A DNA stretch of 45,389 nucleotides from Aquificales bacterium. GTDB taxonomy: Bacteria; Aquificota; Aquificia; Aquificales; QOAS01. The stretch covers positions 1-45,389 of the forward strand of contig JALVTI010000046.1 in NCBI GenBank assembly GCA_027035985.1, written 5' to 3'. Positions 20,010 through 29,415 of the stretch are shown piece by piece; positions within the stretch are counted from its first letter, which is position 1, and every line of letters starts with the position of its first letter. Below the pieces are notes generated by a model, which was not told the DNA's origin, ran no database searches, and saw nothing but the letters and a program-made list of their open reading frames with translations. Made by a program: the position numbers and the translations under genes.

Positions 20010-20963
20010 TTAAATAACCTTTCTCAACTTTAACCAAAAGAGTAGCCCGCCGGTAACCATAACCATTAGGAGGAGCGATATCCAAAATCCGTAGGGGTTG
20101 TGGAGAAAAGGAATAAAGTCGAAGTTCATCCCGTAAATGCTCGCTATGAGGGTGGGGGGTAAAAAGAGGGTGGCTATAAAGGCGAACACCTGCGAGGTCT
20201 CATTCTGCTTTATCGTTATCAATCCCAGAAGCGATTCCTGAACGCTGTCTATCTTTTCCATATATATGGTGGTGTAGTCGGATAGGGCGTTCAAGTCCTC
20301 GATAATGAGCTTAAGCTCCCTCTTTGTGATGTTGTTTATCTTGGTGCTCCTCACCAGTTTCTGTAAAATCCGCAGTTTCTCGTTTATGGACTCTCTCAAG
20401 GTTAGGTTTAACTCGTCGTAGTAGGCGAGGTCTTTGATAATTTCGGGCGACTGCTCGGCGAAAATCTGTTTGCGGATACTCCTAATCCTCTTTCCGATAA
20501 TCTCCAAGCGGTTCCCTATTCTCTCCACCTCGAGGTTTAGAAGCTCCGCCATCAGCTGGTCGGGATAGGCAAAATCCAACTTGTGGCGGTCGATAAGCCT
20601 CTTAAACATCGAAAAGGTGACGATTTTTTTATACCTTAGGGTGATGAGGAGGTTGTTTTTTAAAAAGAACAACACCGGTTCGGCATATACCTCGTCCCTG
20701 TGTTGGACTAAAAAGGAAAATATCGCGTAGAGGTGGTCTTTTCCCTCCTCAAACCTCGAAGAGATTTCTATATCTTCAAAGACCTCCTTGGGGGGTTCCC
20801 TAAAGCCAAACTCCCTTTGTAGGAACTCCAGCTCCTCCTCCGACGGCTCCCTCACGTCTATCCAAAGCACCTTGGCGGTCGGCAAAACCTCGAGTATCTC
20901 CTCCCGCCTGTTAAACCTTCTTATTCCCCCTCCCGGAGGTATGAGGTAGGCTTTTAACACCAA
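20010..20963 (-). CDS. corA: Magnesium/cobalt transporter CorA
   Basis: 317 aa with a C-terminal YGMNF motif followed by two TM helices, and a cytoplasmic N-domain. The start is TTG 20963 or GTG 20960, with no clear SD. Confidence 0.9.
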   Translation of the reverse strand: MVLKAYLIPPGGGIRRFNRREEILEVLPTAKVLWIDVREPSEEELEFLQREFGFREPPKEVFEDIEISSRFEEGKDHLYAIFSFLVQHRDEVYAEPVLFFLKNNLLITLRYKKIVTFSMFKRLIDRHKLDFAYPDQLMAELLNLEVERIGNRLEIIGKRIRSIRKQIFAEQSPEIIKDLAYYDELNLTLRESINEKLRILQKLVRSTKINNITKRELKLIIEDLNALSDYTTIYMEKIDSVQESLLGLITIKQNETSQVFAFIATLFLPPTLIASIYGMNFDFIPFLHNPYGFWISLLLMVMVTGGLLFWLKLRKVI

Positions 20964-20984
20964 ATGGGTAAGTATACATCAAAG

Positions 20985-21010
20985 AAAAAAGCCCGCCGCT
21001 TCGCGGCGGG
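20985..21010 (-). terminator. Intrinsic terminator directly after the valS fragment
   Basis: On the minus strand the sequence is CCCGCCGC-GAA-GCGGCGGG (an 8-bp all-GC stem, 20992-21010), followed by C-TTTTTT-C-TTT. It starts 18 nt after the valS TAA stop. Confidence 0.8.
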
Positions 21011-21028
21011 GATAGGTTTTTTAAAAGG

Positions 21029-23095
21029 TTAATCCACCCTTTCTATATCCTCTTTGGTTATCTCCGGCCAGCCGAAGGCGCCAAAAGGCCAGAGCGCCGA
21101 GCTAAACCAGGTGTCGAGAACGTCCGCATCCCATTTTAGGTGATAACTTCCGCACTTTTCACACCTTAGGGGGATTAGGTATTTGACCTCCTCCACCAAA
21201 TCGGGGAGTATTTCGAATTTTCCGTTTTCCTCTTTGAGGAGTATGCGGTTATTTTTGCAACCTACCCCGGTGGAGTGGGCTTTTAACCATTCCTCCACGC
21301 TTTGGGGACTTTCGAAAACTTCCGTCCTCTTAATCCCGTTTAAAGCAAGAATGTAGACATACCCGAGGAGATCTTCGTGCTCTTTGTAGGCTTTATACAC
21401 CTCTTCGGGAGTGAATTTCTCGCCTATCCGACCGTTGTAGCGGAGCATATAAATCGCATGCGGGGGAAAGCCTATTATCGTTCCCTCTTCAGGTTGTTTC
21501 AGCAGGGGAACCCTCGGATAGGTCTTGTCTATAAGTTCCTTTAGGAGGTCTCTATTTTTAACGAAGGGTAGCTCCTGGAGGAAGACAAATTTTTCGTAAA
21601 ACTCGGCGTTGGTCATTTCGGGGTGAACGAAGTTGGGTTTTTGGAGGTAATCCCAAACCTCGTCGGGAGAAAAGAGTTGCTCCATCTTTTGGTTTGCGTA
21701 GATGTTGAAGACCAACTTTTGGAGGTAGTCTTCGAAACTCCTCTCGGAGAAGACGTTAATGTGACCGCACTTTTGGCAATACCAGACGGGTATGCGGTGT
21801 CCCCACCAGATTTGGCGGGATATGCACCAGTCGCGGAGGTTGTAGAGCCAATGGAGGTAATGCTTTTTCCAAAACTCGGGTATGAACCTAATGGTGTCGT
21901 TTTCGACCACCTCGGTGGCGGGTTTCCTCAGGCGCTCGTCGGAGGTTTTGACGAACCACTGCTCGGAGACCATCGGCTCTATAACGGTTTTACACCTGTA
22001 GCAGTGTCCCACCGCGTGGACTATATCCTCCTCCTTTTCCAAAAGACCGAGTTCTTTGAGCCTTAAAACGATTTGCTCCCTTGCCACATACCGGTCTAGA
22101 CCTCTAAATTCGCCGGCGTTTTTGTTCATGTGGGCGGTCTCGTCCATAACCTTAACGACGGGTAGGTTATGGGTTCTTCCTATTTCGAAGTCGTTGGGGT
22201 CGTGGGCGGGGGTAATCTTGACCGCACCGGTTCCGAAGTCCATTTTTACCCTTTCGTCGGCGATTACGGGTATTAAGTTTCCAACGGGGTTTCCGTTTAT
22301 ATCACTTCTCTCCCACTCCACGAGGGGGAGTTTCAATTTTTTCCCTATAAGGTGTTTGTATCTCGGGTCGTCGGGGTGGACGGCTACCGCCGTGTCTCCG
22401 AGCATCGTTTCGGGACGGGTGGTCGCGACGGTGATATACTCGCCGGTTTCGTTGCCGCTCTCGTCGACTACCGGATATTTGATATACCAGAGTTTGCCCG
22501 GCTCCTCTTCGTATTCGACTTCCAAATCGGATAATGCAGTTCTGTCTTTAGGACACCAGTTTACTATGTAGCTGTCCCTGTATATCAGTCCGTCCTCGTA
22601 AAGGCGGTGGAAGTTCTCCCTAACGGCGCGGCTAAAGCCCTCGTCCATGGTGAAGCGCTCGCGTTCCCAGTCGACGCTTCCACCCAAAAACTGAAGTTGG
22701 GTTCTTATGGCGTTTCTCGAGACGGGCACCCACTCCCAGATACGCTTTATCATTTCCTCCCGCCCCAGGTCGAAGCGGGTTTTTCCCTCCTTTTTGAGTT
22801 GCTTTTCGACGACGTATTGGGTCGCAATTCCCGCGTGGTCGAAGCCGGGCACCCATACGACCTCTTTGCCCTCCATCCTCATAAAGCGGGCGACTATATC
22901 CTGTATGGTGATATTCCAGGCGTGCCCCATGTGGAGCGAGCCCGTCACGTTGGGGGGCGGGAGAACCATAGAAAACTTTTTCTCCCTTTTGGGTTTCTCT
23001 ATATGGTAAAGCTTCTCTTGGAGCCAATATTCGCGCCACTTCTTTTCTACCTCGTCAGGGTTGTAATGTTTGGGGAGTTCCCTCTTTTCGGACAT
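21029..23095 (-). CDS. valS: Valyl-tRNA synthetase, N-terminal roughly 70% only (HIGH half of the Rossmann fold, CP1 editing domain and Zn knuckles). The C-terminal KMSKS and anticodon-binding module is absent.
   Basis: PPPNVTGSLHMGHAWN (HIGH), TTRPETMLGDTAVAVHPDD (editing domain), WCISRQIWWGHRIPVWYC and DVLDTWFSSALWPFGAFGWPE are present. The ORF then ends in ...KEDIERVD* where full-length ValRS continues with FYPT..LVTG.DI.FFW and KMSKS. Confidence 0.85.
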   Translation of the reverse strand: MSEKRELPKHYNPDEVEKKWREYWLQEKLYHIEKPKREKKFSMVLPPPNVTGSLHMGHAWNITIQDIVARFMRMEGKEVVWVPGFDHAGIATQYVVEKQLKKEGKTRFDLGREEMIKRIWEWVPVSRNAIRTQLQFLGGSVDWERERFTMDEGFSRAVRENFHRLYEDGLIYRDSYIVNWCPKDRTALSDLEVEYEEEPGKLWYIKYPVVDESGNETGEYITVATTRPETMLGDTAVAVHPDDPRYKHLIGKKLKLPLVEWERSDINGNPVGNLIPVIADERVKMDFGTGAVKITPAHDPNDFEIGRTHNLPVVKVMDETAHMNKNAGEFRGLDRYVAREQIVLRLKELGLLEKEEDIVHAVGHCYRCKTVIEPMVSEQWFVKTSDERLRKPATEVVENDTIRFIPEFWKKHYLHWLYNLRDWCISRQIWWGHRIPVWYCQKCGHINVFSERSFEDYLQKLVFNIYANQKMEQLFSPDEVWDYLQKPNFVHPEMTNAEFYEKFVFLQELPFVKNRDLLKELIDKTYPRVPLLKQPEEGTIIGFPPHAIYMLRYNGRIGEKFTPEEVYKAYKEHEDLLGYVYILALNGIKRTEVFESPQSVEEWLKAHSTGVGCKNNRILLKEENGKFEILPDLVEEVKYLIPLRCEKCGSYHLKWDADVLDTWFSSALWPFGAFGWPEITKEDIERVD

Positions 23096-23195
23096 AGAAG
23101 GGAAATTCTAAACCTCCAAAAGTATATCTTCGCTACCTACACCTTTAAATTTTCATACTTCTTTACTTTTTAAGTTTTATGAGGTTTTAAAAACA

Positions 23196-23366: not shown

Positions 23367-23855
23367 TTAAGAAGAAGGGTTTAGCAATTTTATAAAATTT
23401 ACCCTTACAAAGTCGGAATCCGCCGATAGTAGATAGACCAGATTTCTCGACTGCATAGCCCTAACCACCAATGCATCGTTTCCAAAAAGCCCAAACTCCT
23501 CCATAAGTTTGGGAATTTCCAAAACCCATTCAACCTTAACGGGTAGAATTTCAATCCGATAATATTCCAGAAAAGGGAGGATTTTTTCCTCCAAAATTTT
23601 CCCGAGTTCCTTAACAATTTCAGGGTTCCTTCTCAATTTTTGAACCGCTTTATTCCCAAATCCGTATTTAGTTTTTGCAATAATTACCATTTCCTTAAAG
23701 AGGAGCTCATCCACACATCTCGAGGTGGTTATAAGGGAACATCTCCCTTCGGCGGCAAAATGAAATATTTCCTTCGTCAGGTCGTTAGTTTTTCCGTGTA
23801 AAAAGAGAAGAAAGGCTGAAGTATCAACAAAAATCTTTTTCCCCTCAATCTTCAT
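23367..23855 (-). CDS. PIN-domain ribonuclease (VapC-like toxin candidate)
   Basis: 162 aa. The acidic residues are in PIN order: IFVDTSAF (D11), CVDELLFKE, GNDALVV and LLSADSDFVRV. It overlaps the upstream small gene by 11 nt. Confidence 0.7.
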   Translation of the reverse strand: MKIEGKKIFVDTSAFLLFLHGKTNDLTKEIFHFAAEGRCSLITTSRCVDELLFKEMVIIAKTKYGFGNKAVQKLRRNPEIVKELGKILEEKILPFLEYYRIEILPVKVEWVLEIPKLMEEFGLFGNDALVVRAMQSRNLVYLLSADSDFVRVNFIKLLNPSS

Positions 23856-24159
23856 AGGAAAGCCCCTTATCGTCTATGACCTCCCAAAGGATATCGTCGG
23901 GAACTTCACCCAAAACTCCAAAAAAGGGTAGGTTTTCTTTTTCCCTTTGGCAATAGATTTCAAAAGCCAACCGCTGGATTTCCTTGTAGGTGGCATTTGG
24001 CTTTCGAGTAAGCGCCTCTTTTATAGCCCACCGCAAATGTTGGGGAGGTTTTACCTTCCGTTTAGCCGTCCGCTTTCTCTTTAAAAGACCGAGCTCTTCC
24101 TTCACAGCGGCGATGTAGCAGGTCTTAAAGGTCTGCGGAGAGGTTATAGCCTTTCGCAT
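23845..24159 (-). CDS. Hypothetical 104-aa protein, the cognate partner (antitoxin position) of the PIN gene
   Basis: It lies upstream of and overlaps the PIN gene. It has a basic centre (KRKRTAKRKVKPP) and an acidic C-terminus (VPDDILWEVIDDKGLSYED). I see no RHH, AbrB, Phd or HTH signature. ATG 24159 is preferred over the track's TTG 24165. Confidence 0.45.
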   Translation of the reverse strand: MRKAITSPQTFKTCYIAAVKEELGLLKRKRTAKRKVKPPQHLRWAIKEALTRKPNATYKEIQRLAFEIYCQREKENLPFFGVLGEVPDDILWEVIDDKGLSYED

Positions 24160-24175
24160 CTTCAAGAGATTAATT

Positions 24176-26412: not shown

Positions 26413-28131
26413 TTAAGCCTTTTGTAGTTCCTTCTTTAGCTCCTCAAATTTGTCGAGCGCCTCCTCTATAGGAACGTCAAACCTCTCACCCGTTTTGCGG
26501 ATTTGAATTTCGACCAAACCGTCCTTTACCTTCCTACCCACCACTATGCGGACGGGAATACCTATGAGGTCGGCGTCTTTGAACTTAAAGCCGGCGCGTT
26601 CGTCCCTGTCGTCGATTATTACGTCTATACCCCTGTTTAGGGCTTCCTTATAAAGTTTTTCGGCAACCTCCATTTGTTTTTCGTCGGTGACGTTTAGGGG
26701 GAGTATCTCCAGTTCGAAAGGTGCAACATTTATAGGCCAAATAATTCCGTTTTCGTCGTAGGACTGCTCTACAATCGCCGACATGAGGCGGGAAACCCCT
26801 ATCCCGTAGCAACCCATTACTATCGGCTTTTCTTTTCCGTCCCTGTCGACAAAATAAGCCTGCATCGGTTCGGAATACCTGGTTCCGAGGAGGAAGATAT
26901 GACCTATTTCCAACCCTCTCGAGAGCCTTAGGGGTGCCCCGCACTCGGGACAGGGGTCGCCCTCTTGAACCTCGGCGAGGTCGTAAAACTCCCCATATTC
27001 AAAATCCCTCCCGGGGTTGGCATTTATGTAGTGGTAGTGGGGCTCGTTTGCGGCAACAACTAAATTCTTAACCCCGTATAGGGAGTTATCCCAGAGTATC
27101 CTTTCGACTTTCCCCTCAGGGAGGTTTATGGGACCCACAAACCCCCTTTCGGTTCCCAGTATCTCTTTAATCTCCTCGTCGGTTGCCAAACGGAAGTTGT
27201 CCGTTCCGAGGACTCTTTCCAGTTTGTTCTCGTCCACCTCGCGGTCTCCCCTTATGAGAACCAAAACAGGTTTTCCTTCGACAATGTATAGGAGGCTTTT
27301 GAGTATCTTCCTCGGAGGGACGTTTAGGAATTTGGCGAGTTCCTCTATAGTTCTAACGTTGGGGGTGTGAACCTTTTGGAGGGGTTTTTCCTCTTCCCCT
27401 TCGGGGGTCGGTTTTTGGACGGGAACAATCTCGGCGTTGGCGGCATAGCCGCACTTTTCGCAGTGGGCGACCTTAGCCTCTCCGTAGGGAGTCAGCGCGA
27501 CAAACTCCTCCGATTTCTTACCACCAATCTGACCGGTGTCGGCTAAAACCCTTAGATATTTGAGACCTATGCGGCTGAAAATTCTCTCGTAGGTTTCCCC
27601 CATGAGGTTGTATGCTTCCTCCGCACCCTTGTAGTCGGTGTCGAAAGAATAGGCGTCCTTCATGAGGAATTCTCTCGCCCTTATAAGACCGAAACGGGGT
27701 CTCTTTTCGTCCCTAAACTTGGTCTGAATTTGGTAGAGTATCAGCGGTAGGTCTTTGTAGGATTTGACCTCTTTGCGGACCAGGTCGGTAATCTCTTCCT
27801 CGTGGGTGGGACCCAGGCAGAAATCCCTCCCGTGGCGGTCTTGGAGTTTAAAGAGCTCATCCCCGTAGAGTTCCCATCTACCGGTCTCCTCCCAAAGTTC
27901 GCGGGGATTTAAAACCGTTAAAAGGACTTCCTGCGCCCCCGCTTTGTTCATCTCCTCGCGGACAATATTTTCAATCTTTTTCAAAACCTTTAGCCCTAAC
28001 GGGAGAAATTCGTATATACCGGCGGCGACCTGTCTTATAAAGCCACCCCTAACCAAGAGCTGGTGGGAGGGTGCTATCGCCTCGGAAGGCGCTTCCTTTA
28101 AGGTCGGTATAAAGGCTCTAGACCAACGCAT
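26413..28131 (-). CDS. proS: Prolyl-tRNA synthetase (bacterial type with INS domain)
   Basis: The protein starts at MRWSRAFIPTLKEAPSEAIAPSHQLLVRGGFIRQVAAGIY. Other matches are FRDEKRPRFGLIRAREFLMKDAYSF and GCYGIGVSRL. The 92 extra N-terminal codons of the track ORF run into the pgk promoter region and are rejected. Confidence 0.9.
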   Translation of the reverse strand: MRWSRAFIPTLKEAPSEAIAPSHQLLVRGGFIRQVAAGIYEFLPLGLKVLKKIENIVREEMNKAGAQEVLLTVLNPRELWEETGRWELYGDELFKLQDRHGRDFCLGPTHEEEITDLVRKEVKSYKDLPLILYQIQTKFRDEKRPRFGLIRAREFLMKDAYSFDTDYKGAEEAYNLMGETYERIFSRIGLKYLRVLADTGQIGGKKSEEFVALTPYGEAKVAHCEKCGYAANAEIVPVQKPTPEGEEEKPLQKVHTPNVRTIEELAKFLNVPPRKILKSLLYIVEGKPVLVLIRGDREVDENKLERVLGTDNFRLATDEEIKEILGTERGFVGPINLPEGKVERILWDNSLYGVKNLVVAANEPHYHYINANPGRDFEYGEFYDLAEVQEGDPCPECGAPLRLSRGLEIGHIFLLGTRYSEPMQAYFVDRDGKEKPIVMGCYGIGVSRLMSAIVEQSYDENGIIWPINVAPFELEILPLNVTDEKQMEVAEKLYKEALNRGIDVIIDDRDERAGFKFKDADLIGIPVRIVVGRKVKDGLVEIQIRKTGERFDVPIEEALDKFEELKKELQKA

Positions 28132-28224
28132 TAAGTGTTTTATTCTCCCTTTAAAGGGTCTGTTAGCTATTTGCTTTTCCCACAACCGAAATCCCTTGCT
28201 GATAGTTCCTACAATAGGAAACCT

Positions 28225-29415
28225 ATGCTCACCAAGAAGACCTTGAGGGATATAGATGTTAGGAATAAGAAAGCCCTTGTTAGGGTCGATTTCAACGTTC
28301 CCATAGACGAGCAGGGGAATATCGTCGACGACCTCCGTATAAGGGCTGCCCTTCCCACGATAGAATATCTCCTCGACCAGAAGTCGGTTGTGGTTTTGAT
28401 GTCCCACCTCGGCAGACCCAAAGGGCGCGATGAAAGGTATTCCCTAAAACCGGTGGCAAAGCGCCTTTCCAGACTTATAGGACAGGAGGTGATATTTGCG
28501 CCCGACTGCGTCGGGGAAGAGGTTGAGGAGATAGTAAACAACGCCAAACCGGGCGACGTAATACTGCTGGAGAACCTTCGCTTCCACCCCGGGGAGACCA
28601 AGGGGGACATCGAGTTTGCCAAAGGTCTCGCAAAGCTCGGCGACTTTTACATAGGCGACGCCTTCGGAACCTGCCACAGAAATCACGCCTCAACCTACGT
28701 GGTTCCCCAGATACTGAAGCCCGCCGTGATGGGTTTTCTCCTCGAAAAGGAGATTACCTACTTCACCAAGGCGCTCGTTAACCCCCAAAGACCGGTTGTC
28801 GCCATTTTGGGCGGTGCGAAGGTTTCCTCCAAGCTGGCGGTAATAAAAAACCTCCTAAAGAGGGTTGACAAACTCTTTATCGGCGGTGCGATGGCGTTTA
28901 CCTTCCTAAAGGCTTTGGGCTACAACGTCGGCAGCTCCCTGGTGGAGGATGAGCTTATAGACACCGCCCGCGACATTGTCGATATAGCCAAAAAACTAGA
29001 CGTGAAGCTATACCTACCAGTGGACTTCCTCATAGGTAAGGAGGTGAGCGACAATACCCCCACCAAATTGGTCGCTTGGCAGGAAATACCCGACGGGTGG
29101 ATGGGATTGGATATAGGCCCCGCCTCCCTCAAGCTCGCCGAGGAAATACTTTCCGACGCCCAAACCATTATTTGGAACGGTCCCATGGGGGTTTTTGAAC
29201 TGGATAGGTTTAAGGAGGGAACGTTCGGCATAGCCCGCCTTGTAGCCGAAAGCCCCGCCCTAACGATAGCGGGCGGAGGGGATACCGACTACGCCATACA
29301 CAAGGCGGGCGTCTACAACGCCATAAGCTGGGTATCCACCGGCGGTGGGGCATTCCTCGAACTGCTTTCCGGCAATACCCTCCCCTGCATAGAGGTTCTC
29401 GATGACCGCATTTAA
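28225..29415 (+). CDS. pgk: Phosphoglycerate kinase
   Basis: MLTKKTLRDIDVRNKKALVRVDFNVP...SHLGRPKG...NLRFH.GE...GGAKVSSK...GGGDT. The start is reset from 28135 to ATG 28225. Confidence 0.95.
   Translation: MLTKKTLRDIDVRNKKALVRVDFNVPIDEQGNIVDDLRIRAALPTIEYLLDQKSVVVLMSHLGRPKGRDERYSLKPVAKRLSRLIGQEVIFAPDCVGEEVEEIVNNAKPGDVILLENLRFHPGETKGDIEFAKGLAKLGDFYIGDAFGTCHRNHASTYVVPQILKPAVMGFLLEKEITYFTKALVNPQRPVVAILGGAKVSSKLAVIKNLLKRVDKLFIGGAMAFTFLKALGYNVGSSLVEDELIDTARDIVDIAKKLDVKLYLPVDFLIGKEVSDNTPTKLVAWQEIPDGWMGLDIGPASLKLAEEILSDAQTIIWNGPMGVFELDRFKEGTFGIARLVAESPALTIAGGGDTDYAIHKAGVYNAISWVSTGGGAFLELLSGNTLPCIEVLDDRI

Follow-up and report, generated by a model that had tools for sequence, protein, structure and literature searches.

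This locus raises the question of how a bacterium can charge tRNA with valine when its synthetase gene appears to be cut short. The window, a stretch of 45,389 nucleotides (positions 1 to 45,389 of contig JALVTI010000046.1) from an Aquificales bacterium of the GTDB lineage QOAS01, contains an open reading frame (ORF) of 688 amino acids that resembles valyl-tRNA synthetase (ValRS) and stops before the part of the enzyme that carries the KMSKS motif. ValRS is normally a single chain. An earlier note, made from the letters of the window, proposed that this ORF, called valS-N here, is one half of a two-gene enzyme. From the comparisons described below, it is very probable that valS-N is the first of two genes that jointly encode ValRS in an uncultured, heat-loving Aquificales lineage that is sister to the Aquificaceae.

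The identity of the ORF is clear. Pfam assigned it to tRNA-synt_1 and to the class Ia editing-domain family. The ValRS equivalog TIGR00422 matched with 670.1 bits (cut-off 612.1) over model positions 2-430 of 863, and PRK05729 came just under its cut-off (703.6 vs 704) over model positions 2-419 of 860. Each of these two matches adds one short later stretch beyond the N-terminal half. All of the N-terminal hallmarks quoted in the earlier note are present, including SLHMGHAWN, TTRPETMLGDTAVAVHPDD, WCISRQIWWGHRIP, and DTWFSSALWPFGAFGWPE, and the final residues before the stop codon are ITKEDIERVD. The protein therefore spans the enzyme from HIGH, in the first half of the Rossmann fold, through the CP1 editing domain and a Zn knuckle with a lineage-specific insertion to the DTWFSSALWPF helix. 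Its end is 10 residues past GWPE, just ahead of the YPTxLLVTGFDIIFFW strand, which is where the note had placed the stop. The alignment with the ValRS of Persephonella hydrogeniphila (1089 amino acids) runs from residue 6 to residue 676 at 57.6% identity, and the end of valS-N maps to residue ~475-479 of the T. thermophilus enzyme (1GAX, 862 amino acids). No KMSKS motif is found in the gene, and neither PF08264 nor PF10458 matches it. The number of missing residues is about 410 (385-415), so the 250-300 given at first was too low.

The domains that are present can be compared with known structures. The CP1 domain (residues 199-358) can be aligned to 1WKA and 1WK9, structures of the T. thermophilus ValRS editing domain in isolation, and it was predicted by AlphaFold2 (AF2) with a predicted local distance difference test (pLDDT) score above 90. 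The two Cys-x2-Cys halves of the Zn knuckle are at C440/C443 and C645/C648, and they flank an insertion of ~190 amino acids. No Pfam match to the insertion was found. It is predicted to be a helix-rich, confidently folded domain (pLDDT >90). The insertion is common to the ValRS of Hydrogenothermaceae and is partly shared by that of Aquificaceae, and the full-length Aquificota enzymes that possess it are 1000-1170 amino acids long. It is because of this insertion that valS-N is long for a half. A fold search with the N-half returned only ValRS, isoleucyl-tRNA synthetase (IleRS), and leucyl-tRNA synthetase (LeuRS), with 1GAX best in both sequence and fold; the search was uninformative on the insertion domain.

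The remainder of the enzyme is not encoded nearby. No ValRS C-terminal sequence was found beyond the ORF in the 45-kb window by tblastn with the full-length ValRS of Persephonella, Aquifex, and Thermocrinis, in agreement with what had been noticed downstream of the gene. Ten window ORFs of at least 360 amino acids were searched with NCBIfam, and none is a synthetase C-half; the matches were to methionine adenosyltransferase, RND efflux components, prolyl-tRNA synthetase (ProRS), and PilQ. The all-GC hairpin reported after the TAA stop was confirmed. It consists of CCCGCCGC-GAAG-GCGGCGGG (window 20992-21010, -16.8 kcal/mol), followed by CTTTTTTCTTT. A similar hairpin and T-tract is also present 3' of the N-half at three other loci (L002, L003, and L005).

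The same truncated form is found in related genomes. In a collection of 5.8 billion proteins, there are ~20 protein clusters of 591-697 amino acids that are 69-100% identical to the N-half and have the same truncated architecture. All of them end 3-20 residues past GWPE, with tails that vary between lineages. Of the 20 clusters, 19 have an intact PPPNVTGSLH(M/L)GH motif; the other, P0020 (591 amino acids), is shorter and does not include that region. The editing motifs are invariant, and nearly all clusters retain HIGH, the editing motifs, and the Zn-knuckle cysteines. The best full-length ValRS match across the whole N-half has 60% identity. Aquifex proteins reach 74-76% identity, although the match extends over just 57% of the query. 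No full-length ValRS close to the split clade was found in this collection; the earlier note had named a second, full-length valS in the genome as the finding that would count against a split enzyme. All members of the lineage that were found are metagenome-assembled genomes (MAGs) or metagenome contigs.

The surroundings of valS-N are not conserved with it. When the window was compared with a strain at 94.5% nucleotide identity, homology started exactly at the ATG of valS-N and stopped 9 nucleotides past the stop codon. The flanks are unrelated even between near-identical strains (window 21020-23095 vs L001/L247 and L248), and the genes 3' of the N-half are mutually unrelated in seven species-representative genomes. 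In the window, the neighbors are gcpE, a PIN toxin-antitoxin pair, corA, and fabD. In JALWDU01 they are ribF and nadA together with toxin-antitoxin genes, and in JALWND01 they are lpxK, nadA, and PIN/MazE. The neighborhoods of the N-half can be described as highly variable and rich in toxin-antitoxin genes.

The missing module was expected to be encoded elsewhere in the genome, and stand-alone genes for it were found. With residues 677-1089 of the Persephonella ValRS as the query, proteins of 413-422 amino acids were identified in Aquificota MAGs, on contigs of up to 57 kb. They begin with M, then 10-20 residues, and then LYPTDLLVTGFDIIFFW. KMSKT is present in 22 of 23 C-halves, at residues ~59-69 (P0169 does not match the pattern). 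In addition to KMSKT, Pfam matches to Anticodon_1 (PF08264) and Val_tRNA-synt_C (PF10458) show that the C-half has the anticodon-binding domain and the C-terminal coiled coil. The boundaries of the two proteins are complementary. The N-half ends 3-20 residues past GWPE, and the C-half opens 10-20 residues before LYPTDLLVTG. HIGH is on one gene, KMSKT is on the other, and the genes occupy separate loci. One candidate, P0162, was dropped as a split C-half; it starts with MSTLGWPE, groups with Acidobacteria, and is a fragment of an unrelated gene.

The two genes occur together in the same assemblies. Locus scans of species-representative genomes were pattern-based and retained 80 loci each. In all seven genomes with an N-half (JALWDU01, CAZNBH01, JALSNH01, JAADES01, JAADCT01, QOAS01, and DTXZ01), the assembly also contains a C-half of 413-420 amino acids, located on a different contig. 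JALWND01 is an eighth assembly with the halves on different contigs. Where contig titles give the coverages, those of the N-half and C-half contigs agree (15.6 vs 17.9; 104 vs 98). Two more MAGs were paired through protein accession numbers (HID78920/HID79937 and HIQ26579/HIQ25999), and a C-half is also present in the sister sample from the window's own project (JOHN19-1). The QOAS01 assembly (L006 / L164) contains both ValRS halves of this Aquificales lineage although its label reads 'Gammaproteobacteria bacterium MAG 128'; the taxonomic assignment is probably wrong.

Both N-half and C-half genes stand alone in the middle of their contigs, among unrelated neighbors, and the C-half genes have their own start. 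A divergent gene lies upstream of the C-half in the window's species, with 355 bp of intergenic sequence between the two, and fur and the enolase gene follow downstream. Matching genomes keep the same order for more than 8 kb around the C-half (collinearity), which is not so around the N-half. A CRISPR-like array was also seen ~2.7 kb upstream of a C-half gene (L243:294-1060; also L163 ~1057-1290). It contains at least 12 copies of the 29-nucleotide repeat GTTTCAATCCCTTATAGGGACATAAAAAC, with spacers of ~36-41 nucleotides.

Both halves are under strong purifying selection. The ratio of nonsynonymous to synonymous substitutions (dN/dS, Nei-Gojobori) is 0.04-0.10 for the N-half and 0.06-0.15 for the C-half, and for unsaturated pairs the values are 0.065, 0.12, and 0.057. 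With such values, intact motifs, and an architecture shared by ~20 clusters, the N-half does not look like a pseudogene or a gene in decay. In a neighbor-joining tree, the N-halves form one clade that is sister to Aquificaceae (Aquifex, Hydrogenobacter, and Thermocrinis), with Hydrogenothermaceae outside. The tree of the C-halves has the same topology, as expected for genes that are inherited together. Pairwise identities of the N-half and C-half between genomes correlate with a Pearson r of 0.67 (n=10 non-independent pairs).

Since each half forms one clade and both clades are sister to Aquificaceae, the trees point to the native valS having been split once, long ago. The simplest history would be one fission in the ancestor of the uncultured Aquificales lineage, after which the pieces became separated. 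A duplicated linker, with both halves retaining an ancestral T-E-D-L-K copy, would hint at duplication followed by complementary loss. This idea amounts to no more than a weak hint, as only some of the N-half tails carry such a sequence (EIT[K/A]EDIE) and many do not.

A mechanism can be proposed for how two such genes may supply one enzyme. The ancestor would have been a full-length valS like those of other Aquificota (~1000-1170 amino acids), cut in the short linker on the protein surface that joins the DTWFSSALWPF..GWPE helix to the YPTDLLVTGFDIIFFW Rossmann strand, at about residue 478 of the T. thermophilus ValRS. This position is within the Rossmann catalytic domain, ~60 residues upstream of KMSKT. 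The linker has an equal length in all of the full-length ValRS sequences that were aligned, and the cut site is therefore not a site of variable insertions. The alpha-like product of 688 amino acids would give the first Rossmann half, which includes HIGH, as well as the CP1 editing domain and the Zn knuckle. The beta-like product (413-420 amino acids) would come from a gene elsewhere in the genome with its own start and promoter-like signals; it would add the other Rossmann strands and the KMSKT loop, together with the anticodon-binding helix bundle and the C-terminal coiled coil. Most likely, in the way demonstrated experimentally for the alpha-beta LeuRS of Aquifex aeolicus, the two chains associate non-covalently, which would complete the Rossmann sheet and place the aminoacylation site across the interface. 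The physical association of the halves, valylation, and editing activity are all inferred from sequence.

The AF2 models of each half alone are consistent with this mechanism. The pLDDT values exceed 90 for the editing domain and the insertion of the N-half and for the helix bundle and coiled coil of the C-half. The parts with low confidence are residues 1-150 and 668-688 of the N-half and residues 1-60 of the C-half. These are the Rossmann pieces, which contain the most conserved residues of the alignment, and their low confidence fits a fold that may be completed only in the complex.

Several points weigh against a two-subunit ValRS. The case is built from sequence comparison and single-chain models, and the AF2 models of the separate halves come from shallow alignments (35-40 sequences) without a full-length control. 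All of the genomes are MAGs, and the linkage of the two halves rests on binning. A second, divergent full-length valS could conceivably lie on an unbinned contig, and the lack of a second match per assembly is weak evidence, because the scans were pattern-based with 80 loci each.

The incompleteness of MAGs also makes a second gene formally possible, and valS-N might then be a truncated paralogue or pseudogene, perhaps a free-standing editing factor, with a normal full-length valS elsewhere charging the tRNA. Free-standing editing-domain proteins do exist for other synthetases. This is nevertheless very unlikely. All 8 assemblies checked contain a C-half that complements the N-half exactly, the protein collection holds no close full-length relative, and both halves have the same phylogenetic position. 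In addition, HIGH and the entire first Rossmann half are conserved at a dN/dS of ~0.06, and an editing-only factor would not need them. With data that consist of single metagenomic contigs, one might suspect an artefact: pieces wrongly joined in assembly, a frameshift from a sequencing error, or a disruption that arose very recently in this one contig. Such an artefact is hardly credible. The same end point recurs in ~20 clusters, the most divergent at 69% identity, and these come from independent projects and assemblers, as seen in contig names of the styles NODE_, k141, k99, k127, and scaffold. Tails and downstream genes differ among the loci, and no downstream frame contains ValRS sequence. 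The earlier reading of a clean gene end, and not a frameshift or misassembly, is borne out by these independent assemblies.

Thermophiles are known to have split inteins and split genes, and the two genes do occupy separate loci. The halves might be joined covalently after expression into a normal single-chain ValRS, either at the protein level by a trans-splicing split intein or at the RNA level by trans-splicing. A split intein would comprise an N-intein of ~100 amino acids, a C-intein of ~35 amino acids, and a nucleophile at +1. The extra sequence here is 3-20 amino acids on the N-half and 8-16 on the C-half, which is poorly conserved and too short for intein halves, and there is no conserved Cys, Ser, or Thr nucleophile at the junction. 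A terminator directly follows the N-half, the C-half has its own ATG, and no intron-like sequence was seen, although no Rfam search was made. Covalent joining is accordingly highly improbable. It is also possible that the halves act jointly as ValRS and have an independent role or regulation besides, the N-half as a trans-editing enzyme and the C-half as a free tRNA-binding protein. The separate promoter-like signals would agree with this, as would the contrast between the highly variable neighborhoods of the N-half and the collinear C-half locus, and the beta subunit of Aquifex LeuRS has been purified and used alone with tRNA (PMC2377443). However, nothing in the sequences requires such a role, and the motifs are those of a canonical ValRS, so this proposal is given only a slim chance. 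That the fission is something beyond a neutral break, with subunits regulated or used separately (for example, N-half trans-editing or a free C-half binder of tRNA-Val), is somewhat less improbable, yet still unlikely. A ValRS made of two separately encoded subunits remains the preferred explanation.

The features of valS-N and its immediate surroundings are collected in Table 1. The next gene on the same strand is corA, as the note had stated.

Table 1. Positions of valS-N, its parts, and adjacent features in the window.
Feature	Position	Strand	Basis
valS-N (putative alpha-like subunit), 688 amino acids	21029..23095	-	ATG start, TAA stop; Pfam, NCBIfam, alignment
HIGH signature, S53-L-H-M-G-H58, ATP-binding motif	22922..22939	-	ORF translation
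CP1 editing domain, residues ~199-358, with TTRPET and GTGAVKITPAHD	22022..22501	-	Alignment to 1WKA/1WK9
Insertion of ~190 amino acids, residues ~452-640, inside the Zn knuckle	21176..21742	-	Gap at 1GAX residue 434
C-terminal tail ITKEDIERVD, fission point	21032..21061	-	Alignment to full-length enzymes; past the last homologous residues (GWPE)
Intrinsic-terminator-like hairpin and T-tract, 18 nucleotides past the stop	20983..21010	-	8 G-C pairs, loop GAAG
corA, next gene on the same strand	20010-20963	-	Pfam CorA E=3.8e-58
Promoter-like site TTTAAA-17-TATACT upstream of valS-N	23121..23149	-	Consensus match only

Expression signals were examined as consensus matches. A TAGAAT box lies 9 nucleotides 5' of the valS-N ATG, with no Shine-Dalgarno sequence at normal spacing. 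The C-half genes have similar -10-like boxes 7-13 nucleotides 5' of the ATG. These signals fit separate transcription of the N-half and the C-half. Across the window, many genes that lead a transcription unit (for example, those starting at 23095, 14255, 18314-side, 34316, and 26337) combine a -10-like TAnnAT box 7-13 nucleotides before the ATG with the lack of a Shine-Dalgarno sequence, and operon-internal genes have GGAGG 6-9 nucleotides upstream. This pattern suggests leaderless or very short-leader mRNAs for many of the unit-leading genes.

Other genes in the window were also noted. Between valS-N and gcpE/ispG there is a two-gene module (23367-24165, minus strand), in which an ORF of 106 amino acids overlaps a protein of 162 amino acids with a weak PIN-domain match; it is probably a toxin-antitoxin pair. 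The ProRS ORF (26413-28407, minus strand) has a GTG start as called, with 92 extra residues ahead of the model match; the true start is probably further downstream. An archaeal-type methionine adenosyltransferase is encoded at 652-1863 on the plus strand, ~19 kb from valS-N. In JAADES01 (L004 5180-6407), the orthologous gene is immediately downstream of valS-N. The placement of this gene may be taken as a further sign of extensive gene-order shuffling.

The sequence comparisons support a naturally split class Ia synthetase, with the split conserved throughout an uncultured Aquificales lineage. A search of about 8.3 million full-text papers and preprints, only partly aimed at ValRS, brought up nothing on a split ValRS or on this lineage (QOAS01); the earlier note had likewise been aware of none. 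Annotation pipelines label the N-half as 'valine--tRNA ligase' and the C-half as 'hypothetical protein' or 'class I tRNA ligase family protein', and the genomes therefore appear to hold a truncated essential gene. Marker-gene or pseudogene statistics may be skewed by such annotation of a split valS. The fission could serve as a clean shared derived character of this uncultured, roughly family-level lineage. A natural cut inside the catalytic Rossmann fold would also provide a ready test of the modular assembly of class I active sites. A split ValRS would complement the alpha-beta LeuRS of Aquifex and the laboratory work on split synthetases, and it could offer a natural split site for protein engineering.

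Compared with the single-chain bacterial ValRS (1GAX, Aquifex, and Persephonella), no catalytic, editing, Zn-knuckle, anticodon-binding, or coiled-coil element is missing, and the elements follow the same order. The difference is that the chain is broken at about residue 478 (1GAX numbering), with the parts at unlinked loci. Natural fissions of synthetases are represented by the split pheT of Altiarchaeales and the split alanyl-tRNA synthetase of Nanoarchaeum, which resemble the ValRS genes in being lineage-defining fissions of essential synthetase genes at non-adjacent loci with conserved residues kept (PMC4975002). Those enzymes, however, are archaeal and class II, and they are cut between domains or in variable regions and not in a catalytic Rossmann fold. 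Methionyl-tRNA synthetase and IleRS that were artificially split in or near the catalytic domain in the Schimmel laboratory reportedly reassemble non-covalently into active enzyme. These splits were engineered, unlike a natural and conserved two-gene enzyme.

The closest comparison is with the LeuRS of Aquifex aeolicus (leuS / leuS'), which is also a class Ia synthetase encoded by two separate genes in the same bacterial order. It is an active heterodimer, in which alpha carries HIGH and editing and beta carries KMSKS and tRNA binding (PMC2377443). In both systems, the larger piece has HIGH and CP1 editing, and the smaller piece has KMSKS and the tRNA-binding C-terminal part. This much of the parallel drawn by the earlier note stands; the cut, which it had placed at a comparable position, does not. 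The Aquifex LeuRS is cut inside its large leucine-specific domain, directly before KMSKS (PMC3643597). ValRS does not have that variable domain, and it is cut upstream of the LeuRS site, ~60 residues before KMSKT and ahead of the LLVTGFDIIFFW Rossmann strand. Because ValRS has no leucine-specific domain and is cut further upstream, the split described here is, judged from the aligned sequences, a fission independent of that in LeuRS, at a different site and inside the Rossmann fold.

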